The notes under the pieces are model-generated. The model was given only the letters and a program-made list of their open reading frames with translations. It was not told the DNA's origin and ran no database searches. 64,000 bases of DNA from Patescibacteria group bacterium (lineage in GTDB: Bacteria; Patescibacteriota; Minisyncoccia; 2-02-FULL-40-12): assembly GCA_038062015.1 (NCBI GenBank), contig JBBTXZ010000002.1, positions 1,266 through 65,265 of the forward strand, in the 5' to 3' direction. Numbering within the stretch: position 1 is the first letter of the stretch; each line of letters begins with the position of its first letter. Positions 11,390 through 64,000 of this stretch are shown here, one piece after another. The position numbers were made by a program, and so were the translations under genes.

Positions 11390-11390
<1 letters not shown>

Positions 11391-13633
11391 TATCTAAGAG
11401 AATTTATAAAATCCTGGGCTTCCTTGGCAAAAGAAGGATCAATTATGGCTGCGGCTTGAGCTTCTTTAATAGCTTTATCTCTCTCCCCTATTTCCCGATA
11501 AGCCACCGCCAAAGAGGCGTGATACTGGGGATCTTTAGGATTAATTTTTATCAAAGCCTCGTAAACTTCGGCAACTTTATGGAAATCCTTTAAGTTGAAG
11601 TAAATATCCAGCATCCTCAAGGCGTCAGTTTCAGTTGATTTATAATTATATTCTGATTTTTCTATAATCTCGGCGCCCTTTCGAAGCTGACCGGCCTGGG
11701 CGGTGGTAATTCCTAAATACCAATGGGAAAGCCCGACTTCCGGATTCAACTCAACTACTTTTTCAAACCACTCTATCGCTTTTTGGTAGTCTTTTTTATT
11801 GAGATAAGCCTGGGCGATTTCGTAATAAGTTCTTACAAAGGTCGGAGAAACTTCAAAAGCTTTGAGGCTGTACTCTAAAGCAGTATCATTGTGAGGCGAT
11901 TCCGGATCGCTTTTGCCAAGGATAATGTAAAGACGGCTTAAATACAGATAAGGAAGATAATCCTCTGGCGATTCTTCGGCGTTCTTTTTGATGTTTTCAA
12001 TAGCCGTGAAAAGACGATCCTGATTCTTTTTATCTATTGCTGAAGCGGCGTTGGTCCTTTCAAGAATATACTGGCCGTAACGGTGGCGTATTTCGTACTT
12101 CCCGAAAGTGTTATAGCTCATTGCTTTATTGAATTTTTCAAAAGCCAAATCATTATCCCCCGCCCAGGAAGCGATAATGCCTCTAGTGGTGGCATAGTTT
12201 GCCCGAGCCGGTCGGATTTCGAAAAAATAAATCGAAAACCCGACTAAAACCGCTAAAATCAGGCCAATGACATTCGCCTCCAAAAACATTCTGGTCTTTA
12301 AATTTTCGGGCGTCGGCCCCGCTGAGCGGGGCGCCGGTTTAAGATTACGGGCTGTTAAAAAATTAATAAATCCGATGACTAGGAAAAACATGATGTAATT
12401 GGCTGAAGTGTCAAAAATGAAGGCGTTATGGATTGCGTAAGCGACTAAGGCGGAGATCAGGCCGATTTTAAAAACTTTGTTTTCAGCGGTGTCATTTAGT
12501 TTTCTAACGACCTGAAAAGCCAGGATAAAAATTAAAATATAGGCGATAAAACCAATTATCCCCATGGTAAAAAGAATTTCCAAAAACTGGTTATGGGCCC
12601 GGTCAAAAAGAGTTTCCGAACCAAGTCCCCGGAAAAACTTGGGATTAAAATGTTTTGAAAAAGGGACGTTGAACATTTCCGGCCCCCAGCCAAAAACCAT
12701 TGTTTTTAAAGAATCATTCCAGCCGTCAAAGCCGGCTTGCCAGGCCCAGAAACGGGTTTGGACAGTAAAAGACTTGGGCGAAATATCGGCGTAACGGGAC
12801 AAATAGTGGCTTTCTTTTACAAATTCGGTATTCCGCAAAGAATATAAAATTCCAGCAGTAGTAATTACCAATACTAAGAAATAAATGGTGTATTTTTTGA
12901 TTTTCGCTGAGCCAAAATCAAATGAATAAAACAAACCGAAAACAATAATTCCGGTTATCACTCCCAAAACTGATCCCCTGACTCCAGTCATTAAAACCGC
13001 CAAAACGCCGATAAGAAAAACAAACCCGTAAAAATATTTTTCGTTCTTTGAGTTGGCCGGCCGGAAATAAAGCATCAAAGCTAAAAAAGCGTTGACGATC
13101 ATATAGCCGGCAAACAGGGCCGGATTGCCGATGGTCCCGAAAATTTTATTCCGGCCGCCGGAGCCGATTACCCACTTCAAATCGGTTTTCTGCAAAAATC
13201 CGTAAAAAGCCGAGAGCAAGCTGGCTACCAGAGAAAGTTTGATAAAGGTCAGCCAATCTTCTTTTTTTCTTAAAACTGCGGTAGCCATCACAAAAAACAG
13301 CCAAAAGTGGAAAAAACTAAACCAGCCACCCATCCGTTCAAGAGTCCCGAAAAAGCTTTGATAAAAATTGACGCTGGTAAAAGTGGTTAAACCGAAAGCC
13401 AGAGTAAAAAGAGTAACCGCCCAAAATAAAGGGGTCCGGGGCGGAAGATAAGCCTTTCCTTTTTGAATCAGCAAAATAACATAAAAAACGGCTAAAATTT
13501 CAACTAAAGAACGAAAAACAAGCACCTTCCCGAAATGGAAAGGAGACATAAACTCGCTGAATATCACCAAAGGAATCAAAGCTGAAAGATAGATTCCGTA
13601 TTTTATGATATTTTCCAGATTGACTTTAGGCAT
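11390..13633 (-). CDS. O-antigen ligase/polymerase-like (Wzy_C-type) polytopic membrane protein with C-terminal TPR repeats
   Basis: about 10 predicted TM helices in the first ~450 aa; C-terminal TPR-like repeats (YYEIAQAYLNKKDYQKAIEWFEKVVELNP...); 747 aa. Confidence 0.45.
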
Positions 13634-13659
13634 GGCTTTATGATATTTAAAGTTTAGTT

Positions 13660-15021
13660 ATGAAGCGACTTTTTCTTTTCTTAGGTGATGTTTTAATCCT
13701 TTATCTTTCTCTTTATTTAACCTTGTTTTTCCGATACGGAAGTAATTTCAGTTCTCAAATTTCCATCCATCTTCTCCCCTTCTCTCTGCTTTTCATCTTC
13801 TGGATTATTGTTTTTTACATTGCCGGGCTTTATGAACTTAATTTATCAAAAAATCTGCCCGACTTCTATTCTTCCCTATTCAAATCAATTGCTATTTCTA
13901 TAGCTTTATCCGTAATTTTTTTCTACCTGATCACTATTGAAATAGTCCAAATCGCTCCTAGAAGAAATCTTTTGATATATCTTGCCGTCTTCACCGGTCT
14001 TATCTCTCTATGGCGCTACCTTTACAACCGGCTCTTGGAAAAAACCTTTAAAAATAATACCATCATCGTCGGTTTTGATCAAATTTCTTTTGAGTTCGCC
14101 AAGTTTTTAAACCGCAATCCCCAGTACGGCTACAATTTAAGGTACGCCTTTGATATTTCCGAACAGGCCGCCTTTTCTTTCCGGGACATTGATTTCAGAC
14201 AACTTCGGGGGACGAGAGATATGGAAAGAATCTTGAACGACGAACATATCAATACCATAATTTTGAGTCCGGAGGCTTACCGCCTCCCCAACATTATAGA
14301 TTTTTTCTACAAAGCCAGCAAAAAAGGAATCCAGTTTGTGAATCTAGCCACGGCTTATGAAAGAATTCTCAAAAAAGTGCCTCTGGAAGCGATCAGCCAG
14401 CTCTGGTTTTTGGAAAAAGTTTCCCGGGCGGAAAAAAGATTTTATGAATTCGTGAAACGGTTGATTGATATAGTTTTATCTTTAATCGGCTTGGCCGCTT
14501 TAATCGTAATTTTTCCATTTGCCGGTTCGGCAATAAAACTTACATCGCCTGGACCCCTATTTTACAGGCAAAAAAGAATCGGAAAAGGCGGAAAAATTTT
14601 TGAAGTCATAAAATTCAGAACAATGATGGATGAAGCCGAAAAAAACGGAGCGGTCTGGGCCACAAAAGATGATCATAGAGTCACTAAGTTCGGCCGGTTT
14701 TTAAGAAAAACAAGACTGGACGAATTGCCTCAAGTTTTAAACATTCTAAAAGGAGAAATGTCTGTTGTCGGTCCACGCGCTGAACGGCCAGAATTCGTCG
14801 AAAAATTTAAAAAGGAAATACCATTTTATGAAGAAAGGCTTCTGGTTCGTCCAGGCCTTTCAGGCTGGGCCCAGATTAATTACGGCAAAGACTTGAATCA
14901 ATCTGATACTAAAGAAAAACTCCAGTACGATTTGTATTATATTAAAAACAGATCTCTCACTATTGACTTAGCAGTAATTCTTAAAACGATTAAAACTGTT
15001 TTATCGGCAACAGGCTGGTAA
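13660..15021 (+). CDS. polyprenyl-phosphate hexose-1-phosphate transferase (bacterial sugar transferase, WbaP/WcaJ family)
   Basis: N-terminal TM bundle; C-terminal PF02397-like block PLFYRQKRIGKGGKIFEVIKFRTM...VGPRAERPEF...LLVRPGLSGWAQIN. Confidence 0.85.
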   Translation: MKRLFLFLGDVLILYLSLYLTLFFRYGSNFSSQISIHLLPFSLLFIFWIIVFYIAGLYELNLSKNLPDFYSSLFKSIAISIALSVIFFYLITIEIVQIAPRRNLLIYLAVFTGLISLWRYLYNRLLEKTFKNNTIIVGFDQISFEFAKFLNRNPQYGYNLRYAFDISEQAAFSFRDIDFRQLRGTRDMERILNDEHINTIILSPEAYRLPNIIDFFYKASKKGIQFVNLATAYERILKKVPLEAISQLWFLEKVSRAEKRFYEFVKRLIDIVLSLIGLAALIVIFPFAGSAIKLTSPGPLFYRQKRIGKGGKIFEVIKFRTMMDEAEKNGAVWATKDDHRVTKFGRFLRKTRLDELPQVLNILKGEMSVVGPRAERPEFVEKFKKEIPFYEERLLVRPGLSGWAQINYGKDLNQSDTKEKLQYDLYYIKNRSLTIDLAVILKTIKTVLSATGW

Positions 15022-16997: not shown

Positions 16998-17891
16998 TTA
17001 TTGCAGCAACTTTCGCTTTAAAAATTTAAAAGTTTCGAGTTCTCTATAATCAACAAAAATTAAATGCCTTGGTTTAGTAGTCTTATGGGTACCCCGGCGA
17101 TGAAAGCCCATTGTATTTGCTATGACTAAGGTATTGGCTTTACCAGTAAACGGAATAACCTTCATCCCCTGTCTTTCAAGAGCTTCTCTCTCTACTTCCA
17201 TCGGCTCTTCTCCCTGGCGATTTCTAGACCACCGCCCAAAAGCTATACTCATTTTATATTCCATCCATAATCTTTTTAGGGTTAATTTTTGAGAGCCTCT
17301 GGCGTATTCAAAAGCGGCATTGCTATCGTCTATATCATTTAAATAATAAAGGCATTTAACCGTCGGATAGCTGACATCGAAATGAACCTGATCCTGAGTA
17401 TCAACGGCCCGCTTCCCGATATCTTCCTTATGGTAAAAAGTTTCTTCAAAGGAAACTTTTGGTTTAACTAAAATATCTTTGCCTAAAACAGCAGAAACAA
17501 TTTCATTGATGAAACTGTTGCTGGCTAAGTGTTTATCAAGAATAAAATTTGAATCCTTCTTATCATCCCTGACTAAAGCTGCTCGAGCCATATAGGGCGA
17601 CCGTTCGTTCATAATTTCTTTCTTTGCTTTATCACACTCATTTTTAATTTGTAAAAAAACCTCTTCCGGAAAAAAATTTGGAATAACGGCAATACCGTCA
17701 GCCATAATCTTTTCATAGATCGCTTTGCCTTGTTTGTCTTGAAGAAATTTTTTCCCCCGTAATCCATAAAAAGTATTAAAAACCAGAACTCTTAAGATAT
17801 GGTAGCCTAAAAGATTGGAAATGAATCCTCCCGCAAATCTGGGCGGGTAAGTATATAGTTTTTTAACCAGCGATTTAATAAATCCAATCAT
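16998..17891 (-). CDS. PhyH-like Fe(II)/2-oxoglutarate-dependent dioxygenase family protein
   Basis: H-x-D (HFDVSYPTV) and distal His (MGFHRRGTH) spacing typical of the PhyH fold; embedded in the sugar-modification operon. Confidence 0.4.
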   Translation of the reverse strand: MIGFIKSLVKKLYTYPPRFAGGFISNLLGYHILRVLVFNTFYGLRGKKFLQDKQGKAIYEKIMADGIAVIPNFFPEEVFLQIKNECDKAKKEIMNERSPYMARAALVRDDKKDSNFILDKHLASNSFINEIVSAVLGKDILVKPKVSFEETFYHKEDIGKRAVDTQDQVHFDVSYPTVKCLYYLNDIDDSNAAFEYARGSQKLTLKRLWMEYKMSIAFGRWSRNRQGEEPMEVEREALERQGMKVIPFTGKANTLVIANTMGFHRRGTHKTTKPRHLIFVDYRELETFKFLKRKLLQ

Positions 17892-17903
17892 TTTTTCAAT
17901 CTA

Positions 17904-18848
17904 TCACTGCTTGCTTTTATAAGCAATTAACAATGAAATCTCTTTGGGAAAATAATTTATTAAGCCGCTATAAACTTTATTTTCCTGAGATAGAATAAAC
18001 TTATGGCTGAATTTTGATTCTGGGAGTAATTTGTTAATTTTAGTTTGCACCCAAACCGGCATCACAGATAAAAATCTTTTGATAAACCGCTTATTTAATT
18101 TTGCCAAATAATAATTTTCGATCTTGGTAAAACCGGCCTTGTTAAAAAAATCATTCCAATCTTTCAAGCGATATTCTTTTTCTCCATTCATTCTTCTGGT
18201 AAATCTTTTATCTAAAGAAAAATCATATAACTTTTTGTCATTTTCGCTGTATTCCGTATCCAGTAATTCATTCAAGTCTTTTTCGGTAAAATAATCTGGA
18301 CGGGCTTTATCAAAACAAAAAATAAAACCGTCTTTTTTCAAGATTCTGAAGCATTCCTTAAGGGTTACAGCGAGATTATTTGAATGATGCAAAGAAAAGA
18401 AATCAAAAACAAAATCAACGGATTCATCAGGCAATTCCATATTGTCAAAACTGCCGATTACCCCTATGACTTTTTCTGATTTGCCGTTTAAAACATAGTC
18501 AGCAATTTTAGGCGCTAAGAGCTTTACTATCGGCTCACAAACTTCAACTGCATACATTTTTTCGATTGGTTTTCTTTTAGCTAAAACTGAACTAAAGGTC
18601 GCTGGACCAGCCCCAACTTCTAAACCAATCCCTTTTATTTTATTTTTTAAAAAATTATTTTCGACAAAATCAATTAGATTTTCCAAATCTTTTATTTCAA
18701 TATTCGGCGCTACTTTATCAAAAGTAATTTGTCGAATAATCGTAAGGGGTTCTTCATTTTTTAGGTCTAAAGCAAATTGAGTCCGATAATGCTCCTCGGT
18801 TTCCTTTTTTAATTCATCATTGATAGACCACTGAAGGATATTAAACAT
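17904..18848 (-). CDS. class I SAM-dependent methyltransferase
   Basis: motif I GLEVGAGPATF; motif post-I/II FDFFSLHH...LKKDGFIFCFD. Confidence 0.7.
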   Translation of the reverse strand: MFNILQWSINDELKKETEEHYRTQFALDLKNEEPLTIIRQITFDKVAPNIEIKDLENLIDFVENNFLKNKIKGIGLEVGAGPATFSSVLAKRKPIEKMYAVEVCEPIVKLLAPKIADYVLNGKSEKVIGVIGSFDNMELPDESVDFVFDFFSLHHSNNLAVTLKECFRILKKDGFIFCFDKARPDYFTEKDLNELLDTEYSENDKKLYDFSLDKRFTRRMNGEKEYRLKDWNDFFNKAGFTKIENYYLAKLNKRFIKRFLSVMPVWVQTKINKLLPESKFSHKFILSQENKVYSGLINYFPKEISLLIAYKSKQ

Positions 18849-19557
18849 AATTTTTGCTTATTATTATCGTCCCATGTGAATCAGGAATGGGAATTCCTGA
18901 AAGTTTATTTTCGGTTAGAAACTCATCAACTGCCTTCTTAACTCCTTCCCAGTGATCATTGTTGTAATCATGAACAAAAATATAGCCTCCCTTGCTTAAT
19001 TTTGGATAAAAACTCTTTAATCCTTCCAGTATCGGTTCATATAAATCAACATCAATTCTAACGAAAGAAAAATTGGTATCCGGGACTGAATCTTTATTGA
19101 ACTTTCCCACGTGCAATTGGCACACTTCTGGATATTTCATTTTTAAAAGAATGTCTTCTGGTGAAACTTCGGCAAATTTAAAGTTTCTCTCTATGTTCTG
19201 GGCTAAGTTTTTATTTACATCATGTTCAACGTGTTCTTTAATAAATCCTCCAAAAGTATCAAATAAATGAAGTTTTCTATCTGGGAATGCTTGATTTATT
19301 TTTTCAGCAAAATCGCCTCTATAGACTCCCAGTTCAGCCACATCTCCGTCAATTTTTTTTCTCTTTATTTCATCAACGCATAATTCAAAAGTGGCGAGAA
19401 GAATATAATCAGAATAAAAATTAGAGATTCTTGTTTGGAAATTAAGCGGCCGACTCATATTCACTAATGTCCTTGTGATGATAGCATTATTTTCCCAAAA
19501 CCACCTTACTATCAAACGATATAAAAATCTTTTAACTTTATCTTTTATTCTCTTCAT
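18841..19557 (-). CDS. TylF/MycF-family (macrocin-type) sugar O-methyltransferase
   Basis: DVAELGVYRGDFA...KLHLFDTFGGF and GGYIFVHDYNNDHWEGVKKAVDEF match PF05711 hallmarks. Confidence 0.65.
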   Translation of the reverse strand: MKRIKDKVKRFLYRLIVRWFWENNAIITRTLVNMSRPLNFQTRISNFYSDYILLATFELCVDEIKRKKIDGDVAELGVYRGDFAEKINQAFPDRKLHLFDTFGGFIKEHVEHDVNKNLAQNIERNFKFAEVSPEDILLKMKYPEVCQLHVGKFNKDSVPDTNFSFVRIDVDLYEPILEGLKSFYPKLSKGGYIFVHDYNNDHWEGVKKAVDEFLTENKLSGIPIPDSHGTIIISKNYV

Positions 19558-21792: not shown

Positions 21793-21859
21793 TCCATCAT
21801 TCTGCTCTCTGTATTGAATTTGACTATAATTTAAATCTGATTTAAAATTTTATCTCGCA

Positions 21860-23235: not shown

Positions 23236-23236
23236 T

Positions 23237-23911: not shown

Positions 23912-23927
23912 ATTAGTAAATATTCTA

Positions 23928-24431: not shown

Positions 24432-24541
24432 AGGTTTATGCCTTTATTTTATCTTAAGTTGAATATCTTAATCATAGAAATCTAATTTTAACAAAATTCC
24501 CGGTTTTGTAAATATTCGCCAATTCTGATATTGTTTGTTAA

Positions 24542-44017: not shown

Positions 44018-44028
44018 GACTTCCTCCT

Positions 44029-47934: not shown

Positions 47935-47944
47935 GTATTTTCAA

Positions 47945-47989: not shown

Positions 47990-48010
47990 CGCTTGCGAAA
48001 GAACTAAGGG

Positions 48011-50086: not shown

Positions 50087-50088
50087 AT

Positions 50089-51054: not shown

Positions 51055-51055
51055 G

Positions 51056-55022: not shown

Positions 55023-56086
55023 TATAGTAACTCTGAAATTTTTCTTACTGTATCAGATAAATTGTGATTTTTAATGACTGATTCTTCCAAATAATCAATA
55101 ATATGCTTTGTTTTTTGTTCTGGCAAATTCAATAAATTCTGGATCTTTTCAGCTAAATCTCCGGCGGCGCCGTGTTTAAAAATCAAAAATCGGTTAAAAT
55201 CGCCAAAGTATCTTTTAAATATTTCATTGGCGACTAAAGTCAAAGAACCCGCTGCCATCGCCTCAAGAACAACTTTATCAATACCGCCTTTTGGAGCAAG
55301 ATTTACAAAAATATCGGCTTCTTTATAGTAACCGGCGATGCCGCTATAAGGAATAAAGCCGGTAAATTCGATGGAGCCTTCCAATTCCAAATCTTTGACC
55401 ATTTTTTTTAATTCATCGAAATATTCTATATCGTAATCCATTATTGGACGTCCAATTATATTAACCTTAAACGTTAGTCCATTGTCTTTTAAAATTTTTA
55501 CTGCCTTAATTAAGGTTTCGTAATTTTTAATTCTTGATATCCGGCCAACGCTTAAAATTCTGACCTCCCTAGAGTTTAAGTTATCTTGTTTCCTTTCGGT
55601 TTTAAATTTTTGAACATCAATCCCGTGTCCTACTTCAATTATTTTCTTGCTTTTGATATTCAAACTTTCAGCGGTTGAAGTTACGATTTTATAACAGAGT
55701 TTCTCGGCCAGTTTAAGGCGCCTTGTAACTGAACGGTGCAAATACCAAAGGACAATTCTTTTTCTAAAAATTGTGGCGACCGGCCAAGACAAAACCGCAA
55801 AAATCGGAGACATATGAATAAAAACCCCATCTGATTTCGGAATTAATCTAAATAAATACCAATAAAACTTTATGAACATTTTGATCTTTGAACTTCGAAA
55901 CTCTTTGCCCAATGAATAAATAAATACATTTTTAGGCAAATTATGACTTCCTTGTCCCAAAGTTATGACAAAAACTCTATCAAAATTATTGGCAAACTCT
56001 TTAAGCCACGAAACAAAAAAACCCAAAAGATCGTCATCCTGGTCAACTTTCTGGGTAATTATCAAAAGATTTTCCATTTTGTCCAC
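55022..56086 (-). CDS. GT4-family glycosyltransferase
   Basis: GGIDKVVLEAMAAGSLTLVANE. Confidence 0.7.
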   Translation of the reverse strand: MDKMENLLIITQKVDQDDDLLGFFVSWLKEFANNFDRVFVITLGQGSHNLPKNVFIYSLGKEFRSSKIKMFIKFYWYLFRLIPKSDGVFIHMSPIFAVLSWPVATIFRKRIVLWYLHRSVTRRLKLAEKLCYKIVTSTAESLNIKSKKIIEVGHGIDVQKFKTERKQDNLNSREVRILSVGRISRIKNYETLIKAVKILKDNGLTFKVNIIGRPIMDYDIEYFDELKKMVKDLELEGSIEFTGFIPYSGIAGYYKEADIFVNLAPKGGIDKVVLEAMAAGSLTLVANEIFKRYFGDFNRFLIFKHGAAGDLAEKIQNLLNLPEQKTKHIIDYLEESVIKNHNLSDTVRKISELL

Positions 56087-56123: not shown

Positions 56124-57839
56124 TCATTTGCTAAAAGTAAAAGTATAAAAACTATCCAATTCTTTAAACTCTCCTCTTAAAATCTTCAAAGCTGATTCAT
56201 CTTTTACATCAGGGCCGAAGAAATCATAGATTGTCTGACTGGCCTCTTCAAAATGTCGATTTTTCGCCTGAATCAAGGCATAAAAAATAACATTGCCTTT
56301 CCCGCCGTATTCGAAAACTAAAATTTTAAGCGTTTCTTCGGCTTCCGGATATTTTTTCCTAGTGAAATAAACCCGGCTTAGATTCTGTAAAGTGTTTTGG
56401 TGCTTCGGTCTTAATTCAAGGACCCGTTCCAAAAATTTTTCCGCTTCGGCATAATCGCCTTCCTGAACTTCAACCGCCCCTCTAAGATTCAGATTTTGAA
56501 TATAATCGGGATATTTTTCATAAACCTCCAGAGATAACTTTTTGGCTAATTCTTTATCCTGATTAAGAATCAAGATTCCATAATTAGTCTTAGCCGCGAC
56601 GCTATTGGGCGACTTCTTAAAACTGTCGGTTAAAAGAGCTTCGCGGTTGGCCCAGACACGGTTCTGGCTGACAGTTATAAAACCATAAACAACCGATAAA
56701 ATCAATAAAATGGCTAAACCTAACCGCTTTGACAACTTGAATAACTGCTCGATGAATACAGCTAAAATCATCAACGCGCCCAAAGAAGGGAAATACATCA
56801 GCCGTTCAGCCATTATTGTTCCGGTCGGAAAAATCAGATTTGAAATTACAAGATAAGGAAGGAAAAAAAATATAAAGAGCCAACCTAAAACCGAACTCTT
56901 TTTTCGCGTTAGAATCTTGTAACCCTCCCAAAACATCAATCCTAAAAAAACGAGGCCCAATAATGAAAGTGGCGAAGAAAATAAGTTCGTTACTATCGAA
57001 ATCTGGTCATAAGAATAATCAGCCGAAAGATTGTAAGGCACAAAAACTTTTTGAAGATAAAGAACTAAAATTTTTAAAGCCGTAAAAATCCGTTCAAAAA
57101 AAGAAGCATAAGCCAGAGGATTAAAAACAAATTCAACCTGCGATTTGAAGGCGTATTGACCCAGAACAGCGATCCGAAGAATAAAATAAAAAATCATCGC
57201 TGCAAAATAATAAATCGGCCACCGCCAGCCCCGGTGATAATATAAGTTGAACAGAAAAATAATAGCCAGTACCATTATCACACTTTCCTTATTTAAAAAA
57301 GCTAAAAACAAAACTATAGCCGAGAGAAAATACTTTGAATCAAACCACAAAAGCAAAGTTAAAATTCCGAAAAAAAGCGAAAGCAGTTCGGTCCGGCCGC
57401 TAATTGCCGTCACGGCCTCAACGTGAATTGGCAAGACCAAGAATAATAAAGAAGCAATCAAACTGAGACGGCTATTGCTAGTCAACTTTTTCAAAAGTAA
57501 ATAAACCAAAAATGAGTTAATAATATGCAACAAAACATTGACCAGATGAAAACCGAACGGCGAAGAGCCGATTAAAAAATTAAGGCCGAAGCTGATTTGA
57601 ACCAAGGGCCGGTAAAGTCCGGCTTGGTAAAAATCTTCGAAATACGGCTGGCTGAAAAAAGAAAATATTTTGCTTGGCTGACCGAAAAGACTGTGCGATA
57701 AAATTAAATGATCATCATGGACAAATTCACCGTTCAGACCATTAGAAAAGACGGAAGAACCGATCAATAAAAAAAGAATGAAAACAGCCTTATTTGACTT
57801 CATAAGTAAAACTTTATCTAAAAACAAAAAACGGCGCAA
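56124..57839 (-). CDS. TMTC-like GT-C membrane glycosyltransferase with C-terminal TPR repeats
   Basis: N-terminal FVHDDH acidic motif in the first loop; about 11 TM helices; C-terminal TPR repeats (AEAEKFLERVLELRPKHQNTLQNLSRVYF...). Confidence 0.5.
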   Translation of the reverse strand: MRRFLFLDKVLLMKSNKAVFILFLLIGSSVFSNGLNGEFVHDDHLILSHSLFGQPSKIFSFFSQPYFEDFYQAGLYRPLVQISFGLNFLIGSSPFGFHLVNVLLHIINSFLVYLLLKKLTSNSRLSLIASLLFLVLPIHVEAVTAISGRTELLSLFFGILTLLLWFDSKYFLSAIVLFLAFLNKESVIMVLAIIFLFNLYYHRGWRWPIYYFAAMIFYFILRIAVLGQYAFKSQVEFVFNPLAYASFFERIFTALKILVLYLQKVFVPYNLSADYSYDQISIVTNLFSSPLSLLGLVFLGLMFWEGYKILTRKKSSVLGWLFIFFFLPYLVISNLIFPTGTIMAERLMYFPSLGALMILAVFIEQLFKLSKRLGLAILLILSVVYGFITVSQNRVWANREALLTDSFKKSPNSVAAKTNYGILILNQDKELAKKLSLEVYEKYPDYIQNLNLRGAVEVQEGDYAEAEKFLERVLELRPKHQNTLQNLSRVYFTRKKYPEAEETLKILVFEYGGKGNVIFYALIQAKNRHFEEASQTIYDFFGPDVKDESALKILRGEFKELDSFYTFTFSK

Positions 57840-57868: not shown

Positions 57869-58951
57869 TTATTTATTTATTAGCTTAAGATACTTGGCTT
57901 TGGATAAAGGTCCAAAGTAGCCGCTAGCCGGCGATATGTTGTTAGCTTTCTGCCAAGCGGCTACGGCCGCTTGAGTCACTGCTCCGAAACGACCAGTTGA
58001 ACCACCAGAATAAGTAAAATGCCCTGTAGTAGTCAGATAATCCTGCAAAGCCTTAACATCCGCGCCTTGAGAACCGACTGTCAGACTGCGGGTAAAATTA
58101 AAAGCAGCACCAAGAGCTTGAGGCGTCTGAACCGGAGTGGCCACCGGAACAGAAACAGAAGTAATTTTTGCCCTTGTTAACGGCCCAAAATAACCGCTCG
58201 CCGGGGGAACACCGTTAGCCACCTGCCATTTTGCCAAAGCCGTTTTGGTCAAAGAACCGAATAAATTGGTTTCACTACCCGGGGAACCGGGTCCGGAATT
58301 AGCAATTTTAAAACCTGCGGAGTTAAGGAATTTCTGCAAACTTTTAACGTCTTCTCCACTGGAACCAATAGTCAGGTTTCTGACAAATTGGGAAACTGAA
58401 GCTGGGCCTGATAATCCGGCTATCTTTGCCTGTAAGGCCGATATTTGAGAAGTTATCGCTTCTGCGCCTGCGGCCGGAGTTGGGGTCGGACTTGGAGTTG
58501 CTGAAGAAGTTGAGGAATCACTTCCGCCGCCAGTTCCGCCTCCGCCGCCTCCTCCACCACCACCACCAGTAAGAGTGGAACAACCGGACGAACTTGGTGT
58601 CACTTTTATCGTTCTCTGTCCGGAACCAGAAGGCAAGGTAATTGATATTTCAGAATAGGTGCTGGGGCAATTCTGACTAAGGCCGCCATCATTAGTCAAA
58701 ATTTTCCGGTCCGTTGATCTTAAAGTAAATGTCTGCCCTCCTGAAATTTTAAAGGTAAGAGTGGAGGTCTCGGTGCTTATTTCATCAGCGCTTGAACCGC
58801 CAATAATCGTAAAATTAGTAGATGATCCACCTATGGTTAGATTAATCGTGGTATCTTCCGGAAAAGTAAGGGCTGCGGCTGAGACTACGCCCGGAATTAA
58901 AAATAATGAAAGAACTAAAAAGAGATATGATTTTTTAATTAGTTTTTTCAT
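57869..58951 (-). CDS. secreted protein with Gly/Ser/Thr/Pro linker and two peptidoglycan-binding (PG_binding_1-like) domains
   Basis: signal peptide ...GVVSAAA; poly-Gly run; two repeats of the ...GxDVKxLQxxL...GYFGPLTxAK pattern. Confidence 0.65.
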   Translation of the reverse strand: MKKLIKKSYLFLVLSLFLIPGVVSAAALTFPEDTTINLTIGGSSTNFTIIGGSSADEISTETSTLTFKISGGQTFTLRSTDRKILTNDGGLSQNCPSTYSEISITLPSGSGQRTIKVTPSSSGCSTLTGGGGGGGGGGGTGGGSDSSTSSATPSPTPTPAAGAEAITSQISALQAKIAGLSGPASVSQFVRNLTIGSSGEDVKSLQKFLNSAGFKIANSGPGSPGSETNLFGSLTKTALAKWQVANGVPPASGYFGPLTRAKITSVSVPVATPVQTPQALGAAFNFTRSLTVGSQGADVKALQDYLTTTGHFTYSGGSTGRFGAVTQAAVAAWQKANNISPASGYFGPLSKAKYLKLINK

Positions 58952-59370
58952 TGTTTAAGTTTCGAATTGATAATCGTTTGGACTACTTGCGAATCCGGTT
59001 TTAAATTCTCCCAAAAAAGAATGTGATCTCGGTTAAGAATCATTTGATTCTTGGGGCTATGGGGTTCTGTTTCGCCCAATCTCACTAATCTACCGGAAGC
59101 AGAGCCCTCGCTTTCCAACTTAACATAATATACGTCCTCCAAAATCGGGTATTGCGAATCAATATCTCTTAATCTACCAAAATATATTTGCTTGTCATCA
59201 AGGAAAATCGCCTGATAAGTTGTTTGATCAATCCTCTCTTCTTCTCCGGCGCCTTTTAACAGCAACCAATATGCTTTAAAGCCCAAAACGAAAATCAATA
59301 ACAGCCCGACTATTACAGCCAGTCCCGTTAAAATTGGAGAAGATTGATTCTTTTTTAATAGCCACGCCAT
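58948..59370 (-). CDS. hypothetical membrane-anchored protein
   Basis: 140 aa with N-terminal TM LTGLAVIVGLLLIFVLGF; 4-bp overlap with the downstream gene. Confidence 0.4.
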   Translation of the reverse strand: MAWLLKKNQSSPILTGLAVIVGLLLIFVLGFKAYWLLLKGAGEEERIDQTTYQAIFLDDKQIYFGRLRDIDSQYPILEDVYYVKLESEGSASGRLVRLGETEPHSPKNQMILNRDHILFWENLKPDSQVVQTIINSKLKQ

Positions 59371-59388
59371 TAAAACATCCGCTATAAC

Positions 59389-61035
59389 CTATCTGCAATC
59401 AGTCGTGTTTATAGTTAAAGTTGACCCGAAAAGCCTTAGATACTGAACCGTGCCAGCGGTGTTTGTCATGACAAGACAAACGCCCTTGGTAGTCGAGCTT
59501 GTTTCGAAAATGATACTCGTCGTGGCGGTTGAAACCTCGCCGACATTTAAGTTAGTCCCGACAGAAGCCGTGCCGCCAACCTCAAATATCGTATCCTGAT
59601 ATCCGGTGGTGCCCACCCGAGCTGCCCTTGTAACAGTCAGGTCGCCTTTAAACGAGTGGGAAGCAGCAGTATCAGCAATAAATCTGCCTGAAATCTGAAG
59701 GTTGGAAGAAATAGATGCCTTTGAGTCAAAAAAGGCATTTGAATCCACTTCAAGCAAACCCGTGACAAGAAGGTCGTTGGCTGCTGCTAAGGAGCGGGTG
59801 GTGGCGCCAGTACCAAATCTTGAGTATGCCACAGAGGCGTTGCCGGCAAACTGGGCCGCATTCTGAGAAAAGAAATAAGCGGCCGAGGCGGTAGCGTCAA
59901 AGTAAGTTCTATTTTGATGTTCAGTAAAACCGGTTATCAGCAAATCATTACTTGCTGATAGGCCGTGATTAGTCGTATCGGTGCCGAGTCGGGAATATGC
60001 CACTGACGCATTGCCGGCGAACTGAACAGCACCCGAAATCATCAAATTGGTTGCCGAGGCCGTGCCGCCGACTTCAAATTTGGTATCCAAATCAGTACCA
60101 GGGCTCACTCCCACTCTGGTGTTGCTTGTATCAATAATTAATATGTTGGTTGTCCCGGCTGTATTCTGGAATCTAAAGGCGGTGGCAGAATTGGAATTTG
60201 GCCTGAAACGGCCGTCATTCATTGTAAATACGCCTGAAACAGAAGCAGTGCCGCCGAAAGAAACCGAACCTCTAATTTCAACATCGCCCGAAACCAGAAG
60301 GTCATTGGATGCTGAAATATAATTGGCATGATTGGTGGTAGTGGTGCCGAAACGGGAATAGGCCACGGAGGCATTGCCGGCGACCTGCAAGGTATTGCCG
60401 GTTAAGAGGTAAGAAGCAGAGGCGGTGCCTTGAATTTCAGCCCGGTCATCCACTGTTAAGACACCATCAGCAGTGATTAAACCAATCCCGGTTAAGGCGC
60501 CAGTTGAAGAGATATCCCAGTCTGAAGTATTAACCTCCCCAGTATCACCATTATCTCCGAAGACGAATCTGCCCCCAGTCTGAAAGTTGCCAGAGATTGA
60601 AGCTTTACCGTCTAAGAAAGCATTACCATCTACTTCTAAGGCCCCGGAGATTAGAAGATCATTAGAAGCATCAAGGTCTGATGAGTAGCCAGTGGTAGCA
60701 GTGCCGAAACGAGAGTAAGCCACTGACGCATTGCCGGCGAACTGAACAGCACCCGAAATCATCAAGTTGGTTGCCGAGGCCGTGCCGCCGACTTCAAATT
60801 TGGTATCCAATGACCCGAAATTTACTCCCAATCTGGTACTGGTACCGTCAAAAACTAATAAATTAGTTCCTGATCCGTTTTGAAATCTTACTGCTGTCGC
60901 AGAACCACTATTAACCGTAAGAGTTCCGGTAGTGGACATATTGACGCCGATAGTTGAATCAGCCCAAGCTCCATTTATTAAAACAAAAGAAAACACCATC
61001 GACCCGACTGCGAGAAAAGAAATTAATTTTTTCAT
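59389..61035 (-). CDS. secreted repetitive (beta-helix-like) surface protein
   Basis: signal peptide ...INGAWA; four or more copies of ...GTASATNLMISGAVQFAGNASVAYSRFGT...; Gly/Ser/Thr/Asn/Ala-rich. Confidence 0.55.
   Translation of the reverse strand: MKKLISFLAVGSMVFSFVLINGAWADSTIGVNMSTTGTLTVNSGSATAVRFQNGSGTNLLVFDGTSTRLGVNFGSLDTKFEVGGTASATNLMISGAVQFAGNASVAYSRFGTATTGYSSDLDASNDLLISGALEVDGNAFLDGKASISGNFQTGGRFVFGDNGDTGEVNTSDWDISSTGALTGIGLITADGVLTVDDRAEIQGTASASYLLTGNTLQVAGNASVAYSRFGTTTTNHANYISASNDLLVSGDVEIRGSVSFGGTASVSGVFTMNDGRFRPNSNSATAFRFQNTAGTTNILIIDTSNTRVGVSPGTDLDTKFEVGGTASATNLMISGAVQFAGNASVAYSRLGTDTTNHGLSASNDLLITGFTEHQNRTYFDATASAAYFFSQNAAQFAGNASVAYSRFGTGATTRSLAAANDLLVTGLLEVDSNAFFDSKASISSNLQISGRFIADTAASHSFKGDLTVTRAARVGTTGYQDTIFEVGGTASVGTNLNVGEVSTATTSIIFETSSTTKGVCLVMTNTAGTVQYLRLFGSTLTINTTDCR
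60001..60090. repeat. 90-bp near-identical intragenic repeat, copy 1 (partner at 60721..60810)
   Basis: cactgacgcattgccggcgaactgaacagcacccgaaatcatcaaRttggttgccgaggccgtgccgccgacttcaaatttggtatccaa occurs twice with 1 mismatch. Confidence 0.7.
60721..60810. repeat. 90-bp intragenic repeat, copy 2
   Basis: see copy 1. Confidence 0.7.
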
Positions 61036-61145
61036 ACTAAAATTATAAAACTTATTACTAACAAAGACCTGTGGATAAATAATTATCCTTTAAAAGCATT
61101 ATATCAGGGAAAAAAACATTACACTGTGGATAACTTTAAAAGTAA

Positions 61146-61247
61146 ACCCCCACACCCTTACGGGTGTGGCATTGGCCGATACGCGCTTCGCGCGAACAGA
61201 AACCATTCATCCACGGGCTTACGCCCGTGGCATTCTGGGTGTGGGGG
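61146..61247. repeat. GC-rich palindromic element, copy C (intergenic; termini cccccacaccc...gggtgtggggg with nested hairpins)
   Basis: outer inverted repeat plus nested hairpins cacaccc-ttac-gggtgtg, cgcgc-ttc-gcgcg and ccacgggc-ttac-gcccgtgg; same TA-CCCCCACAC termini as copies A and B. Confidence 0.5.
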
Positions 61248-61252
61248 TAAAG

Positions 61253-62377
61253 TTAAATCAATTCCTGTAGTCTTTCGGCATAATTTTTTATTGCCGATTT
61301 TTTTTCAAAACGAGTTGCTATTTCTATGGCCGACTCACTATATTTTTGAATTGATTCTTTAACAAAAAAATAACTTGCCTTTTTAGCAATATCTTCTGCA
61401 TCCCAATCTATTAATTGGCCAAGTTGGCCATCTTTAATGATATCGGCCACTATTCCGACCGGCGTGGCCAGTATTGGCAAACCGCAAGCCATTGCTTCTA
61501 CCACTACTCTTGGCCCGCCTTCATTATAAGAAGGCATCACTAGAATCTTTGACTGATTAAGTAGTCTGGCGACTTCATGCGAATCTTTAGCCCAACCGTG
61601 AAAAACAATATTATCTTTTAATCCCAACTTCTTACTTATTACTTCTAACTTCTTCCTTAATGGCCCATTTCCAATAACAAGCATTTTAAAATTTGAATTT
61701 TGGATTTTGAGCTTACTTGCTGCTTCCAGCAGCAAGTAAATCCCTTTATTTTTAGCCAGCCGGCCGACAAAAATTAAATCGTATTTTTTCTCCAAGTTCA
61801 TGGGCCTGAAAATATCCAAATCAATATAAATAGCCGGAATTAGTTTAATTTTTGATTCCGGAATTCCTAAATTTGCAAGTTTTTCGGCTATCTGACTATT
61901 CATTACTCTCACCGCTTTTGATTTTTTAGAGTCATATTTAATAAAAGAATAAAAAAGCAGCCGGTATATTTTTTCTTTCAGGCTCGCCGCTTTTGGATAA
62001 CCGGGGATATGGAAAATTTCCAAAATATAGGGGAGCTTAATTTTGCTCCATAATAATCTCGTACCGATGCCGTTATAAAACGGCGGATACTCATGAACTG
62101 TGACCAAATCGAATTTTTGTTCTCGGTAAATTTCGCGTCCTTTTTTGAGAATCCAAAAAGATTGGAAAATAAGCGGCCACGGCGACGGATGTAAAAAAAC
62201 ATTATCAAAAGGGGCGAGGGGCGACTCGACTGGGGATCCTCCAGCCCTTGGAATAATAATATCAATTCTTTCCCAGTATTTATGAAATTCTTCCAAAGTA
62301 TTATAAAAAGCACCCTTTTCCCCGGAAGCCAGATCAATGGCGCTGCCCCGCCCGGTTATCATTAATAATTTAGCCAT
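61253..62377 (-). CDS. GT4-family glycosyltransferase
   Basis: KILVMPSYNEGGPRVVVEAMACGLPILATPVG. Confidence 0.75.
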   Translation of the reverse strand: MAKLLMITGRGSAIDLASGEKGAFYNTLEEFHKYWERIDIIIPRAGGSPVESPLAPFDNVFLHPSPWPLIFQSFWILKKGREIYREQKFDLVTVHEYPPFYNGIGTRLLWSKIKLPYILEIFHIPGYPKAASLKEKIYRLLFYSFIKYDSKKSKAVRVMNSQIAEKLANLGIPESKIKLIPAIYIDLDIFRPMNLEKKYDLIFVGRLAKNKGIYLLLEAASKLKIQNSNFKMLVIGNGPLRKKLEVISKKLGLKDNIVFHGWAKDSHEVARLLNQSKILVMPSYNEGGPRVVVEAMACGLPILATPVGIVADIIKDGQLGQLIDWDAEDIAKKASYFFVKESIQKYSESAIEIATRFEKKSAIKNYAERLQELI

Positions 62378-63578
62378 TTTTAATTAACGAATTTAGAATT
62401 TCAACCGTTTCATCGGCCATCTTTTCCACAGTGAATTTTTCGGCCGTCTTTTTCCCTTCTTCGATAAATTTTCCTCTGATATCTTCGTGATCAAAGAGAG
62501 CCTTAATTGCTTCAATAAGATTCAACTCGTCATTATACAAAACCATAAAACCGTTCTCCCCCTGTTTTATTAATTCCGGATTCCCGCCGGCGTTAGTGGT
62601 GACTACCGGCACACCAAGAGCCATCGCTTCTAAAAGCTGATGAGAAAAACCTTCATAGGCCGTATTCAAAACAAACATGTCAGCCGCGGCCAGGTAGATT
62701 TTCAATTCTTCCGGCGATTTCTTGCCGACCAAATAAACCTTATTCTGGAGGCCTAAATTATTTTTCATCGTTTCTAAAATCTCTTTGTCAGGGCCGTCGC
62801 CGACTATCACCAACCTCGCAAAATTATATTCTTTTATCAGTTCGGGCATTATTTTTATCAACATCTTAAATCCCTTCCAAGGCACGAGGCGGCCGGCCGA
62901 TAAAATTATGTTGCCGGAGATGCCGATTTCTTTCCTTGCTTTTTCCTTGCCTTGAGCCACCGGTTTAAAATCAGTCCCATTATAAATAACTTCTATATTC
63001 TTATCTTCCACGCCCCAATACCCGACTACCTTAGCTAAAAATTTAGACGGAACGATAATTTTATCGGCCGCGTGACAAACTTTCATCTGGATTTTTCTTA
63101 AAGTGTGGAACTTGCCGGAAACTTTTTTATTCTGAAAATCCAAGACGTCAATTATTGATTTTGTATCTGACTTATTATTTATTACTTTTAGCTTATTACT
63201 TATATGATATTGCTCCCAAGCATAGTCGCCGGTTATTTTGACGACGAATTTCTTTTTCAAAAACTTATTGGCCAAATAACTTGGATAGCCGGAGCTTGCC
63301 GGCCCCTGGGCATAAATGATATCGCTCGACTTGGCGACTTTCAGTAATTTTAAAAAATAACGGAGATAATTTACCGGTTTTCCGGGCCAGTCTTTAAGCC
63401 GGTGAATCCTGTAATCCGAAACGGCGTCTTCCGGATATTTTCTTTTTTTTGAACGAGTTACTAAATCAATACCAAAACCGCCCTCTTTTAATTTTGGGAG
63501 TATCGCTTTTAGATAACTTGACGGCCCGCCGATTTCCGGCCAGAAAGAACCAGCGGCTATAGTGATTTTTTTAGTCAT
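62370..63578 (-). CDS. GT4-family glycosyltransferase
   Basis: YEGFSHQLLEAMALGVPVVTTNAGGNPELI. Confidence 0.75.
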   Translation of the reverse strand: MTKKITIAAGSFWPEIGGPSSYLKAILPKLKEGGFGIDLVTRSKKRKYPEDAVSDYRIHRLKDWPGKPVNYLRYFLKLLKVAKSSDIIYAQGPASSGYPSYLANKFLKKKFVVKITGDYAWEQYHISNKLKVINNKSDTKSIIDVLDFQNKKVSGKFHTLRKIQMKVCHAADKIIVPSKFLAKVVGYWGVEDKNIEVIYNGTDFKPVAQGKEKARKEIGISGNIILSAGRLVPWKGFKMLIKIMPELIKEYNFARLVIVGDGPDKEILETMKNNLGLQNKVYLVGKKSPEELKIYLAAADMFVLNTAYEGFSHQLLEAMALGVPVVTTNAGGNPELIKQGENGFMVLYNDELNLIEAIKALFDHEDIRGKFIEEGKKTAEKFTVEKMADETVEILNSLIKNG

Positions 63579-64000
63579 ATTTTAGTTAACAAGTTAAACC
63601 TGACTATATGCCAAATCGCGGCCAAACCGTCTTTCCAGTTTATCTTTTTCCCTTCTTCGTAAGTTCGGCCATAATATGATATGGGGATTTCAAAAACTCT
63701 GAATTTATTTTTCGCCGCCAAGGCGGTCAATTCAGGGTCTATCCCAAATCTATCAGATTCTATGACGGGAATAATTTTTTGGATTGCTTCTTTTGAAAAA
63801 ACTTTATAACAGGTATACATATCAGATAGCTTTAGTCCGCTCAAAAAACCAGAAAACCAGTTTAAAAAACGGCTGAACAAATATCCCCTTCTATAGATAA
63901 TTTTTGAATGAGAATTTTTTAAAAACCTCGAACCATAAACTGCATCAGCCCAGCCTTCAATTATTGGTTGAATTAATTTTGGATAATCGCTAGGATCGTA
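63575..64000 (-). CDS. GT2 (Dpm1-like) glycosyltransferase, 3' portion; gene continues beyond the right window edge
   Basis: frame stays open upstream of the listed TTG to position 64000 (...YDPSDYPKLIQPIIEGWADAVYGSRFLKN...); GSRF and the downstream pattern are typical of the GT2 C-region. Confidence 0.65.
   Translation of the reverse strand, partial: YDPSDYPKLIQPIIEGWADAVYGSRFLKNSHSKIIYRRGYLFSRFLNWFSGFLSGLKLSDMYTCYKVFSKEAIQKIIPVIESDRFGIDPELTALAAKNKFRVFEIPISYYGRTYEEGKKINWKDGLAAIWHIVRFNLLTKI

Follow-up and report, generated by a model that had tools for sequence, protein, structure and literature searches.

A Patescibacteria surface-glycan island of more than 52 kb with a WaaL-like, TPR-bearing candidate ligase and three GT-C enzymes

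Among the closest described counterparts of the locus analysed here are the Gram-positive S-layer protein O-glycosylation (slg) loci of Paenibacillus alvei (WsfP/WsfB) and Geobacillus stearothermophilus (WsaP/WsaB). In P. alvei, the S-layer O-oligosaccharyltransferase (O-OTase) WsfB is a Wzy_C protein with a C-terminal TPR motif, and the pathway to which it belongs starts with a WbaP homologue (PMC2943079). We analysed 64,000 nucleotides (positions 1,266 to 65,265 of contig JBBTXZ010000002.1, assembly GCA_038062015.1; hereafter the window) from a Patescibacteria group bacterium, a member of the Candidate Phyla Radiation (CPR). Much of this DNA is a glycan gene block that, like the slg loci, unites a WbaP-like initiating enzyme and the assembly of a lipid-linked glycan with genes for methyltransferases and nucleotide sugars, likewise for an envelope of the monoderm type without lipopolysaccharide (LPS). 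It differs from them in being two to three times larger, in the addition of three GT-C membrane glycosyltransferases and of DPM1-type GT2 enzymes, and in having neither an SLH or recognised S-layer protein gene nor a separate Wzy or ABC transporter. It also differs in its setting, the CPR, a lineage in which glycoproteins have yet to be demonstrated. How the cell envelope of CPR bacteria is organised and formed has been called unclear (PMC5220378), and glycosylation in Patescibacteria has been called unexplored (PMC11623550). Our literature searches returned no earlier account, for CPR bacteria, of islands like this one or of genes resembling O-antigen ligases.

Open reading frames (ORFs) of at least 120 amino acids were listed over the whole window, and each was scanned against Pfam and NCBIfam. 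There were 55, most of them on the minus strand and closely spaced; a 56th listed ORF (44050-44511, plus strand) overlaps another gene and is probably spurious. The window consists of two parts, a housekeeping backbone (1-11.4 kb) and a glycan block that runs from 11,390 to the edge. A preliminary description of the window had proposed a very large and chemically diverse glycan island in this second part. This was borne out: 48 ORFs tile 11,390-63,578 with tiny gaps over more than 52 kb, and almost all are glycan-related. Nor is the island split, as no clearly unrelated housekeeping gene was found in any ORF between 11,390 and the edge; the sole arguably housekeeping gene, a transaldolase-like one at 23237-23911, lies inside an ulosonic-acid module. 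About 18 transferase genes are contained in these 52 kb, as compared with 20 glycosyltransferases reported in total for one curated whole Parcubacteria genome (PMC5220378), a clustering far beyond chance. Ten enzymes of the window have the GT-B fold (eight GT4-type, one TagB/BFO_1060-like and one GT11); at least ten GT-B enzymes in addition to the GT11 had been announced, and the ten include it. Hydropathy analysis identified five polytopic membrane proteins in the island. The island continues past the window edge: contig L087 is 99.94% identical to window 60756-64000 and runs 3.4 kb further, where it completes a second DPM1-like GT2 (241 aa) and adds two GT4 genes.

The island begins, beside secA, with the gene of a Wzy_C protein bearing a TPR domain (Wzy_C-TPR), a WbaP-type phosphoglycosyl transferase (PGT) and a Wzx flippase. 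These calls, and that of a GT2 polyprenyl-phosphate sugar synthase further on, had been made in the preliminary description and were supported by Pfam and NCBIfam. The full-length profile of Wzy_C-TPR, as well as a Foldseek search with its model, was swamped by TPR matches, and trimming to the membrane domain recovered the ligase WaaL (structure 7TPG, E 1.8e-8, with an alignment spanning the catalytic loop). R294 and the stretch D344-R345-A346-H347-N348 (DRAHN) were invariant in ten homologues; conserved Arg and His residues are characteristic of a WaaL-type catalytic loop. The AlphaFold (AF2) model, with a predicted local distance difference test score (pLDDT) of 89.2, comprises 12 WaaL-like helices, a short Lys/Arg-rich loop, a 13th helix and a TPR domain of about 250 aa. 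Orienting the model by WaaL topology and by the positive-inside rule leads to the prediction that the TPR domain faces the exterior, as the catalytic loop does. The additional transmembrane helix and this presumably extracytoplasmic domain distinguish the protein from WaaL. In contrast, a Wzy_C domain followed by a C-terminal TPR and encoded beside a WbaP-like enzyme is the architecture described for WsfB, and the likeness between the two proteins is one of described architecture. On these sequence features, Wzy_C-TPR is a candidate O-OTase or ligase, or alternatively a polymerase.

The conservation of this gene bears on the choice between these activities. Wzy_C-TPR, the PGT gene and the gene of an HExxH/PG-binding protein are syntenic with secA in about 22 relatives. 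Wzy_C-TPR is 70-87% identical across relatives that have differing downstream glycan genes, and homologues at or above about 46% identity form more than 120 clusters. In the closest relative, the identities are 76% for Wzy_C-TPR, 92% for WbaP and 78% for SecA, and the genes past WbaP differ. Wzy polymerases are expected to co-vary with the structure of the repeat unit. Conservation of Wzy_C-TPR despite variable downstream genes therefore fits a ligase or O-OTase of relaxed specificity, recognising a conserved reducing end, rather than a repeat-unit-specific Wzy. It is the single Wzy_C protein in the window.

At least three GT-C enzymes had been predicted in the island. This was confirmed by a PMT_2 match for one, by TMTC motifs for another and by structure prediction for the third (31779-33524), and the WaaL-like Wzy_C-TPR makes a fourth membrane transferase. 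Single-sequence searches of the PDB with the three candidates returned nothing informative. The third enzyme had no Pfam, NCBIfam or PDB sequence match. Its AlphaFold model, calculated with 42 homologues, reached a pLDDT of 91.9 and a predicted template-modelling score (pTM) of 0.91, and all its probability-1.0 matches in Foldseek were GT-C proteins (DPY19, STT3/PglB, AftA, ArnT and Emb; E 4e-6), so that by its model this protein has a GT-C fold. Extracytoplasmic loop 1 carries an Asp motif, of which D56 is invariant in the alignment of close homologues (A1) and reaches at least 90% conservation in that of distant members (A6), where the consensus is DDE. The family to which it belongs comprises 2,549 clusters at 50% identity (E <=1e-3). 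Twenty diverse members gave no Pfam match to the GT-C body, hhalign detected no profile similarity to the TMTC-like family discussed below, and the members that were named or whose context was checked are all from Patescibacteria, bar one labelled Nanoarchaeota. With its fold assigned from the model, we consider this Pfam-less family a candidate new family of glycosyltransferases.

The Pfam-less GT-C gene is preceded and overlapped by that of a GT2 enzyme of about 234 aa in the window and in the related loci L081, L083 and L085, and the two are fused into one protein in P0070 and in P0075, the latter from locus L082. In the GT2 of the window the motifs DAD and RREGESK are present. Of the NCBIfam models, AglJ, PpgS, ArnC and dolichyl-phosphate hexose transferase fitted it best, each with a score below cutoff. 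Two distant members of the GT-C family are fusions with other partners, one carrying a GtrA/DPMS transmembrane domain and one a polysaccharide deacetylase. Judged from its gene arrangement, the overlapping pair bears the signature of a Gtr-like couple, in which a polyprenyl-phosphate sugar synthase works with a GT-C enzyme. The pairing of a short DPM1-like GT2 with a GT-C-fold enzyme, translationally coupled here and fused in relatives, is shared with Gtr-type systems (GtrA/GtrB/GtrC, ArnC/ArnT, CsbB/YfhO and PpgS-type), and the difference is that the GT-C partner here comes from a Pfam-less family.

The TMTC-like enzyme (56124-57839) scored 24-25 bits against TMTC_DUF1736, just under the gathering cutoff of 27. 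Ten of 11 members of its family matched this domain at E <=0.01 (best 5e-9), one matched PMT_2 and one GT87. The DD, YRP and KET motifs, known as M1, M2 and M4 of TMTC proteins (PMC7801869), have aligned counterparts in D42-D43, Y76-R77-P78 and K184-E185-T186; in the family alignment DD, R77-P78 and K184-E185 are invariant, and the TPR occupies residues 400-540. The enzyme therefore shares with TMTC1-4, which are eukaryotic protein O-mannosyltransferases like PMT, a GT-C membrane domain with these motifs, followed by TPR. It differs in its sub-gathering Pfam score and in the lack of any PDB sequence match to its membrane-domain profile, and bacterial homologues are uncharacterised. The PMT_2 protein (36513-37778) resembles PMT and the actinobacterial Pmt protein O-mannosyltransferases in its PMT_2 match but has no MIR or large loop domains. 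For both, the lipid donor would be undecaprenyl-based, in contrast to the dolichyl-based donors of TMTC and PMT enzymes. P0097 is 100% identical to the TMTC-like product, with another start codon.

Three genes for surface proteins (the triad) lie next to the TMTC-like gene. The first (57869-58951) encodes a secreted protein of 360 aa in which a poly-Gly/Ser-Thr-Pro linker precedes two PG_binding_1 domains, the second a 140-aa protein with a single transmembrane segment and the third (59389-61035) a secreted, repetitive, beta-helix-like protein of 548 aa. The first and third products have Sec signal peptides and contain 25.6% and 24.8% Ser plus Thr, respectively, against a background of 11%. 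Their homologues in L089 and L082 occupy an equal position between glycosyltransferase genes and contain 22-27% Ser plus Thr. That these surface proteins are candidate glycan acceptors had already been suggested, and their secretion, their composition and their position inside a conserved core agree with this. They had also been taken to end the island; the proteins are indeed present, but two GT4 genes and the GT2 follow in the window, and two GT4 genes beyond it. The beta-helix-like protein contains an exact repeat of 29 aa, EVGGTASATNLMISGAVQFAGNASVAYSR, at residues 81-109 and 321-349; the underlying DNA repeat (60036-60090 and about 60756-60810) is a potential recombination site for length variation.

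Contigs and loci compared with the window carry labels in L and homologous proteins labels in P (P0001-P0096 and P0337-P0475 are homologues of the Pfam-less GT-C), and all window proteins were compared with related loci by tblastn. L082, a Patescibacteria contig of 210 kb, carries a compact block of 12.4 kb that is collinear with the window read from 63,578 down to 31,779. Its order is GT4, GT4, beta-helix protein, small transmembrane protein, wall-binding protein, GT4, GT4, methyltransferase, GT4, GT4 and GT2 fused to GT-C. In L081 and L083, homologues of the genes at 52924, 46178, 44925, 37780, 33514 and 31779 follow one another as they do in the window, and L089 retains the triad between GT4 genes and a TMTC-like gene. 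Beyond this core, the window contains the TMTC-like gene with a glycosyltransferase, a GDP-deoxyhexose/GT11 cassette, an NDP-sugar/C-methyltransferase cassette that is absent from the compact core of L082, the PMT_2 gene and the carbamoyltransferase. Comparison with relatives, which had been proposed as a way to delimit the island, thus separated a conserved backbone and core from inserted, variable cassettes. The 58-kb contig of the closest relative also contains a glycan island, of at least 40 kb. The island had been called exceptionally large; it is notable for a CPR bacterium, but islands of comparable size in relatives indicate a lineage trait and no singular event. The features of the window are collected in Table 1.

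Table 1 Position, strand and supporting evidence of the features of the window
Feature	Position (nt)	Strand	Evidence
Secreted or membrane-anchored 568-aa protein, HEFQH (HExxH), C-terminal PG_binding_1	9684-11390	-	Pfam E 1.1e-10
WaaL-like Wzy_C membrane transferase with TPR	11390-13633	-	Pfam Wzy_C 63.7 bits (cutoff 31.7); TPR
WbaP/WcaJ-type polyprenyl-phosphate hexose-1-phosphate transferase, initiating enzyme	13660-15021	+	Bac_transf E 5e-67
Wzx-type flippase (Polysacc_synt), at least 8 predicted transmembrane helices	15703-16989	+	Pfam 74.2 bits (cutoff 28.2); hydropathy
PhyH-like dioxygenase, Methyltransf_11, TylF O-methyltransferase, FkbM methyltransferase	16998-20468	-	Pfam; GC 0.30-0.37
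397-aa protein, then Cof-type HAD sugar phosphatase	20599-22621	+	Pfam/NCBIfam
Ulosonic-acid module	22648-28272	mixed	Pfam NeuB E 8e-72, CTP_transf_3 E 2e-23, TAL_FSA
TagB/BFO_1060-like GT-B transferase, then GT4	28299-30733	-	Pfam/NCBIfam
Membrane-anchored SGNH/GDSL esterase or acyltransferase-like protein	30730-31782	-	Weak: Lipase_GDSL E 1e-3
Pfam-less GT-C, 581 aa, about 10-12 transmembrane helices, soluble C-terminal domain	31779-33524	-	AF2 and Foldseek
DPM1/GtrB/ArnC-type GT2, presumed polyprenyl-phosphate sugar synthase	33514-34221	-	Glycos_transf_2 E 3e-25
NodU/CmcH-type O-carbamoyltransferase and two small hydrophobic ORFs	34222-36424	-	Pfam/NCBIfam
PMT_2 (ArnT/PMT-like) GT-C, 421 aa, about 10 transmembrane helices	36513-37778	-	PMT_2 38.1 bits (cutoff 26.1); hydropathy
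GT4, conserved core	37780-38913	-	Pfam; tblastn
Inserted NDP-sugar tailoring cassette	38924-44859	-	Pfam/NCBIfam; GC 0.32-0.51
GT4 and Methyltransf_23, conserved core	44925-46852	-	Pfam; tblastn
Inserted GDP-deoxyhexose cassette	46900-52937	mixed	Pfam/NCBIfam
Three GT-B: GT4, Glyco_trans_1_2/DUF3880, GT4	52924-56086	-	Pfam; genes 52924 and 55022 in conserved core
TMTC-like GT-C, about 10-11 transmembrane helices, C-terminal TPR domain	56124-57839	-	TMTC_DUF1736 and motifs
Surface-protein triad inside core	57869-61035	-	PG_binding_1 81 bits; signal peptides
Two GT4, conserved core	61253-63578	-	Pfam; tblastn
Second DPM1-like GT2, C-terminal part, leaves window	63575-64000	-	Rest in L087

These findings suggested a system for lipid-linked surface-glycan assembly in a monoderm-like CPR bacterium. 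For lipid-linked assembly, already proposed in the preliminary description, there is good support in the PGT, in Wzx, in the GT2s of the DPM1/GtrB type and in the GT-C enzymes. Protein O-glycosylation, proposed there as a possibility, is plausible, and Wzy_C-TPR is a stronger candidate for it than the PMT/TMTC-type enzymes that had been put forward. The explanation that we favour, while holding it tentatively, is that the end point of the pathway is the glycosylation of secreted, wall-bound proteins in an slg-like O-glycosylation. The WbaP-type enzyme would load hexose-1-phosphate onto undecaprenyl phosphate, and about ten cytoplasmic GT-B and GT-A enzymes would elongate the glycan with sugars from the cassettes of the locus (CMP-ulosonic acid, a GDP-6-deoxy- or 3,6-dideoxyhexose, and C-methylated, O-methylated and carbamoylated sugars). 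Wzx would then flip the lipid-linked oligosaccharide. Outside the membrane, the three GT-C enzymes would add residues from polyprenyl-phosphate monosaccharides made by the DPM1/GtrB-type GT2s, and the SGNH enzyme would edit acyl groups; alternatively, the TMTC-like enzyme might act directly on Ser/Thr of proteins. Finally, Wzy_C-TPR would move the glycan en bloc to its acceptor. The Ser/Thr-rich PG-binding and beta-helix proteins of the locus are the best candidates for this role, with type IV pilins as another option. What the analysis shows directly is gene content, folds and motifs, synteny and the pattern of conservation; the donors and acceptors, the order of the steps and the protein end point are inferred.

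Several observations weigh against a protein end point or against a single pathway. PglL_A and Wzy_C_2, the domains by which PglL/PglS O-OTases are recognised (PMC12645811), were absent from the Pfam matches of Wzy_C-TPR at E <=1e-3. Its TPR domain could serve other protein contacts. No SLH or recognised S-layer domain was found in the candidate acceptors, which remain candidates throughout. Pairs of GT2 and GT-C enzymes classically decorate polysaccharides (Gtr, ArnC/ArnT, CsbB/YfhO), a role for which they are no less familiar than for the modification of proteins. GtrA_DPMS_TM, the domain of the GtrA-type flippase for polyprenyl-phosphate sugars, had no match in the window, which further distinguishes the locus from Gtr-type systems. 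Genes for LCP ligases, Wzz or lipid carriers might lie in other parts of the genome, and the approximately 18 transferases could serve two or more separate glycans. Moreover, a match to Pfam Wzy_C cannot tell O-OTases apart from WaaL or Wzy (PMC12645811).

We considered the possibility that the locus makes a Wzx/Wzy heteropolysaccharide (a secondary cell-wall polymer, a capsule or an exopolysaccharide) rather than a protein-linked glycan. Wzy_C-TPR would then be the polymerase, with its TPR acting as a scaffold or chain-length element, and the polymer would be released or fixed to peptidoglycan by an LCP protein encoded elsewhere. The GT2 and GT-C enzymes would decorate it outside, as in Gtr, ArnC/ArnT, CsbB/YfhO and rhamnose-polysaccharide systems, and the embedded PG-binding proteins would be wall-remodelling or anchoring factors, not acceptors. 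The classical set of PGT, Wzx and Wzy_C protein, which the locus shares with O-antigen and capsule loci, agrees with this. So do the large number of glycosyltransferase genes, the mosaic GC and the exchange of sugar-nucleotide genes as cassettes, all of which recall such loci. The best family of the PGT, TIGR03025 (384.8 bits, cutoff 295.6), is that of polyprenyl glycosylphosphotransferases of exopolysaccharide biosynthesis, and the fusions of distant GT-C members to GtrA and to polysaccharide deacetylase also point in this direction. Yet, unlike O-antigen and capsule loci, the 64-kb window contains no Wzz/PCP gene and no outer-membrane export gene, and Pfam scans found neither a second Wzy nor an LCP gene. 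Wzy_C-TPR is conserved like a housekeeping gene over differing glycan sets, which would be unusual for a Wzy, its profile aligns with the ligase WaaL, and its TPR is predicted to face outward beside the catalytic loop, as in the protein-modifying TMTC enzymes and WsfB. We regard a heteropolysaccharide as a serious rival, though less probable than glycosylation of wall-bound proteins. An O-antigen locus for LPS was rejected. Published Parcubacteria genomes lack lpxC and kdsA, and CPR bacteria reportedly lack lipid A biosynthesis (PMC5220378), so that the lipid A-core acceptor of WaaL is expected to be missing; the window is also devoid of Wzz and export genes.

Alternatively, several glycosylation systems might lie side by side without feeding one product: one formed by WbaP, Wzy_C-TPR and Wzx; one in which the TMTC-like enzyme, the PMT_2 enzyme or both put single sugars from polyprenyl phosphate onto Ser/Thr of the adjacent surface proteins; and a Gtr-like GT2 with the Pfam-less GT-C, modifying another polymer or lipid. 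Actinobacterial Pmt and the eukaryotic PMT and TMTC enzymes transfer single sugars from polyprenyl-phosphate sugars to Ser/Thr. The motifs and TPR domain of the TMTC-like enzyme are conserved, and its gene directly adjoins the Ser/Thr-rich triad in the window and in L089. The modules are separable, since L082 has the triad and core without a TMTC-like gene and L090 a TMTC-like gene without the triad, and the GT2 and GT-C pair moves as a unit. However, the core is collinear in distant relatives from the GT4 genes (62370-63578) to the GT-C gene (31779-33524), with the surface genes inside, which suggests one functional unit. The window has one PGT and one Wzx for about ten cytoplasmic glycosyltransferases, and bacterial TMTC homologues have no demonstrated activity (PMC7801869). 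Independent systems are thus an unlikely explanation, behind both a protein-linked glycan and a heteropolysaccharide.

An assembly or binning chimera, or a recent mobile element foreign to the CPR genome, was rejected as extremely improbable: the contig is metagenome-assembled and its per-gene GC varies, but the left end lies in a backbone whose synteny extends to about 22 relatives, other Patescibacteria contigs, 58-210 kb long, have a collinear core, the independent same-site contigs L087, L088 and L092 are 99.9-100% identical to the window over the shared parts, and scans of the window found no integrase, no transposase, no tRNA gene and no Rfam match, hence no tRNA-anchored integration signature.

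A wider proposition, which we hold to be possible but less likely than not, is that CPR bacteria of the Paceibacteria type perform a general O-glycosylation of surface proteins, both en bloc, by a WaaL-like enzyme with an outward TPR, and stepwise, by TMTC-like enzymes and the Pfam-less GT-C family, on Ser/Thr-rich wall-bound proteins that the locus encodes or on type IV pilins.

The sugars that the glycan may contain can be read in part from the cassettes. The ulosonic-acid module had escaped the preliminary description, and the GDP-deoxyhexose pathway had not been recognised there, so that its list of sugar genes was incomplete. The module comprises P-loop kinase-like, transaldolase/FSA-like, KdsC-family phosphatase, CMP-sugar synthetase (plus strand), short-chain dehydrogenase/reductase (SDR), methyltransferase and NeuB-family synthase genes. 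The phosphatase scored 121 bits against the KdsC subfamily (cutoff 107), whereas equivalog scores were below their cutoffs for NeuB (251/400), PseI (211/340), PseF (184/206) and 2-keto-3-deoxynononic acid (KDN)-9-P phosphatase (101/180), so that no score assigns the module to Neu5Ac, Pse, Leg, KDN or Kdo. The combination of a NeuB-family synthase, a phosphatase of the KdsC/KDN-9-P-phosphatase family of HAD enzymes and a PseF/KdsB-like cytidylyltransferase is shared with the KDN, sialic acid and pseudaminic acid pathways. Unlike in these, no UDP-GlcNAc tailoring set of the PseB/PseC or LegB/LegC type is adjacent. The further genes of the module (transaldolase-like, kinase-like, SDR and methyltransferase) suggest that its ulosonic acid is another one, possibly derived from a phosphosugar, and from its sequences the module may represent an undescribed route to such an acid. 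The TagB/BFO_1060-like GT-B enzyme is a candidate ulosonic-acid transferase. A NeuB gene recurs beside WbaP in L001 and L007.

The GDP-deoxyhexose cassette encodes GDP-mannose 4,6-dehydratase (501 bits for the gmd equivalog, cutoff 415), a 253-aa weak GT-A-like protein with a GC of 0.54, an RfbH/ColD-like pyridoxal phosphate enzyme (E 3e-58, below cutoff), an Fcl/ColC-like SDR (286 bits for a cutoff of 500), the GT11 transferase (28.5 bits, cutoff 23.9) and a further SDR epimerase. By homology, the dehydratase, the RfbH/ColD-like and Fcl/ColC-like enzymes and GT11 suggest formation of GDP-fucose or GDP-colitose. The NDP-sugar cassette encodes a Gfo/Idh/MocA enzyme resembling UDP-GlcNAc 3-dehydrogenase, an SDR dehydratase/epimerase, a sugar C-methyltransferase, a 2H phosphoesterase, a GalU-like nucleotidyltransferase, a 125-aa protein without assignment and an IMPase/CysQ-like phosphatase. 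Tailoring genes amount to six methyltransferases, the carbamoyltransferase, the PhyH dioxygenase and the SGNH protein. The GT11, carbamoyltransferase, C-methyltransferase, TylF, PhyH, Gfo/Idh/MocA and several SDR epimerase assignments made earlier were all confirmed by Pfam and NCBIfam. The SGNH assignment was weak: a match to NCBIfam GDSL_LA_2486 (E 9e-9) is also below its cutoff; the protein has one N-terminal transmembrane segment and a homologue in L081. Directly upstream of the carbamoyltransferase, two hydrophobic ORFs of 72 and 64 aa (36005-36424) presumably resemble SxtJ/SxtK-type carbamoyltransferase partners, and small ORFs are likewise present in L081. The 397-aa protein that precedes the Cof-type phosphatase matched no family and had a marginal mannose-phosphate-isomerase-like PDB match.

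Per-gene GC in the island ranges from 0.30 to 0.54, a spread consistent with mosaic acquisition. The extreme contrasts, between 48011-48772 and 44029-44859 (0.54 and 0.51) on the one hand and 19554-20468 (0.30) on the other, point to separate horizontal origins of single cassette genes. L083 and L085 hold cassettes that are not in the window, with B12-binding radical SAM enzymes, a PEP mutase (phosphonate) with a cytidylyltransferase, asparagine-synthase-like amidotransferases, CotH kinase and beta-helix proteins with VTC/DUF4956, and a Y1 transposase beside the GT2 and GT-C pair. In L087, a G-to-T change at position 5310 (window 62122, in the GT4 gene 61253-62377) converts GAA into TAA, leaving ORFs of 85 and 284 aa; this could be a natural on/off variant of the glycan or a low-coverage (4x) error.

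The backbone left of the island contains genes for a TrwB-like ATPase, a 427-aa membrane protein, a sigma-70-like factor, a Mur ligase, SecF, SecA and the secreted HExxH/PG_binding_1 protein. This last protein, whose gene is flanked in about 22 relatives by secA and that of Wzy_C-TPR, belongs to the conserved backbone. It has an N-terminal transmembrane segment, its HEFQH motif is metalloprotease-like, and it contains a coiled-coil stretch; no family could be assigned to its main body. SecA matched only Patescibacteria/Parcubacteria metagenome-assembled genomes (MAGs), the best match being 78% identical (JBBTQD010000013.1). Gene products of the window were found 100% identical on groundwater contigs from Hainich well H51 and on NCBI MAG contigs of 68,997 and 121,540 bp. 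The window thus derives from a CPR bacterium of Hainich groundwater. At 335-3156, the TrwB/VirD4-like coupling ATPase and the 427-aa membrane protein, which has no Pfam match, adjoin a sigma-70 region 4/HARE-HTH protein. This set is kept in about 19-23 relatives and has the appearance of a module of the backbone that might serve DNA uptake or secretion, not of a mobile element. The ATPase (335-1849) was considered as a mark of a conjugative element and rejected as such, because it belongs to the syntenic backbone in about 19 relatives.

The kind of locus described here is known; what is new is the CPR setting, the WaaL-like enzyme with its predicted outward TPR, conserved although the lineage is reported to lack LPS, the acceptor candidates embedded among the glycosyltransferase genes and the Pfam-less GT-C family. 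The extent of the island, more than 52 kb, stands out because the bacterium belongs to the CPR. CPR bacteria are thought to live attached to hosts and are known for small genomes, typically of about 1 Mb. For a genome of that size, more than 52 kb devoted to one surface glycan system would be a big investment and imply strong selection on the coat, which is probably central to host recognition and phage defence. The locus provides a parts list for this coat, with an initiating enzyme and ligase pair beside secA, a core with acceptor candidates, exchangeable cassettes and an unannotated GT-C family tied to a GT2, which, if its activity is as predicted, would be a new glycosyltransferase family. 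If sugar cassettes are indeed rapidly exchanged, this would diversify the coat for attachment to hosts and evasion of phages.

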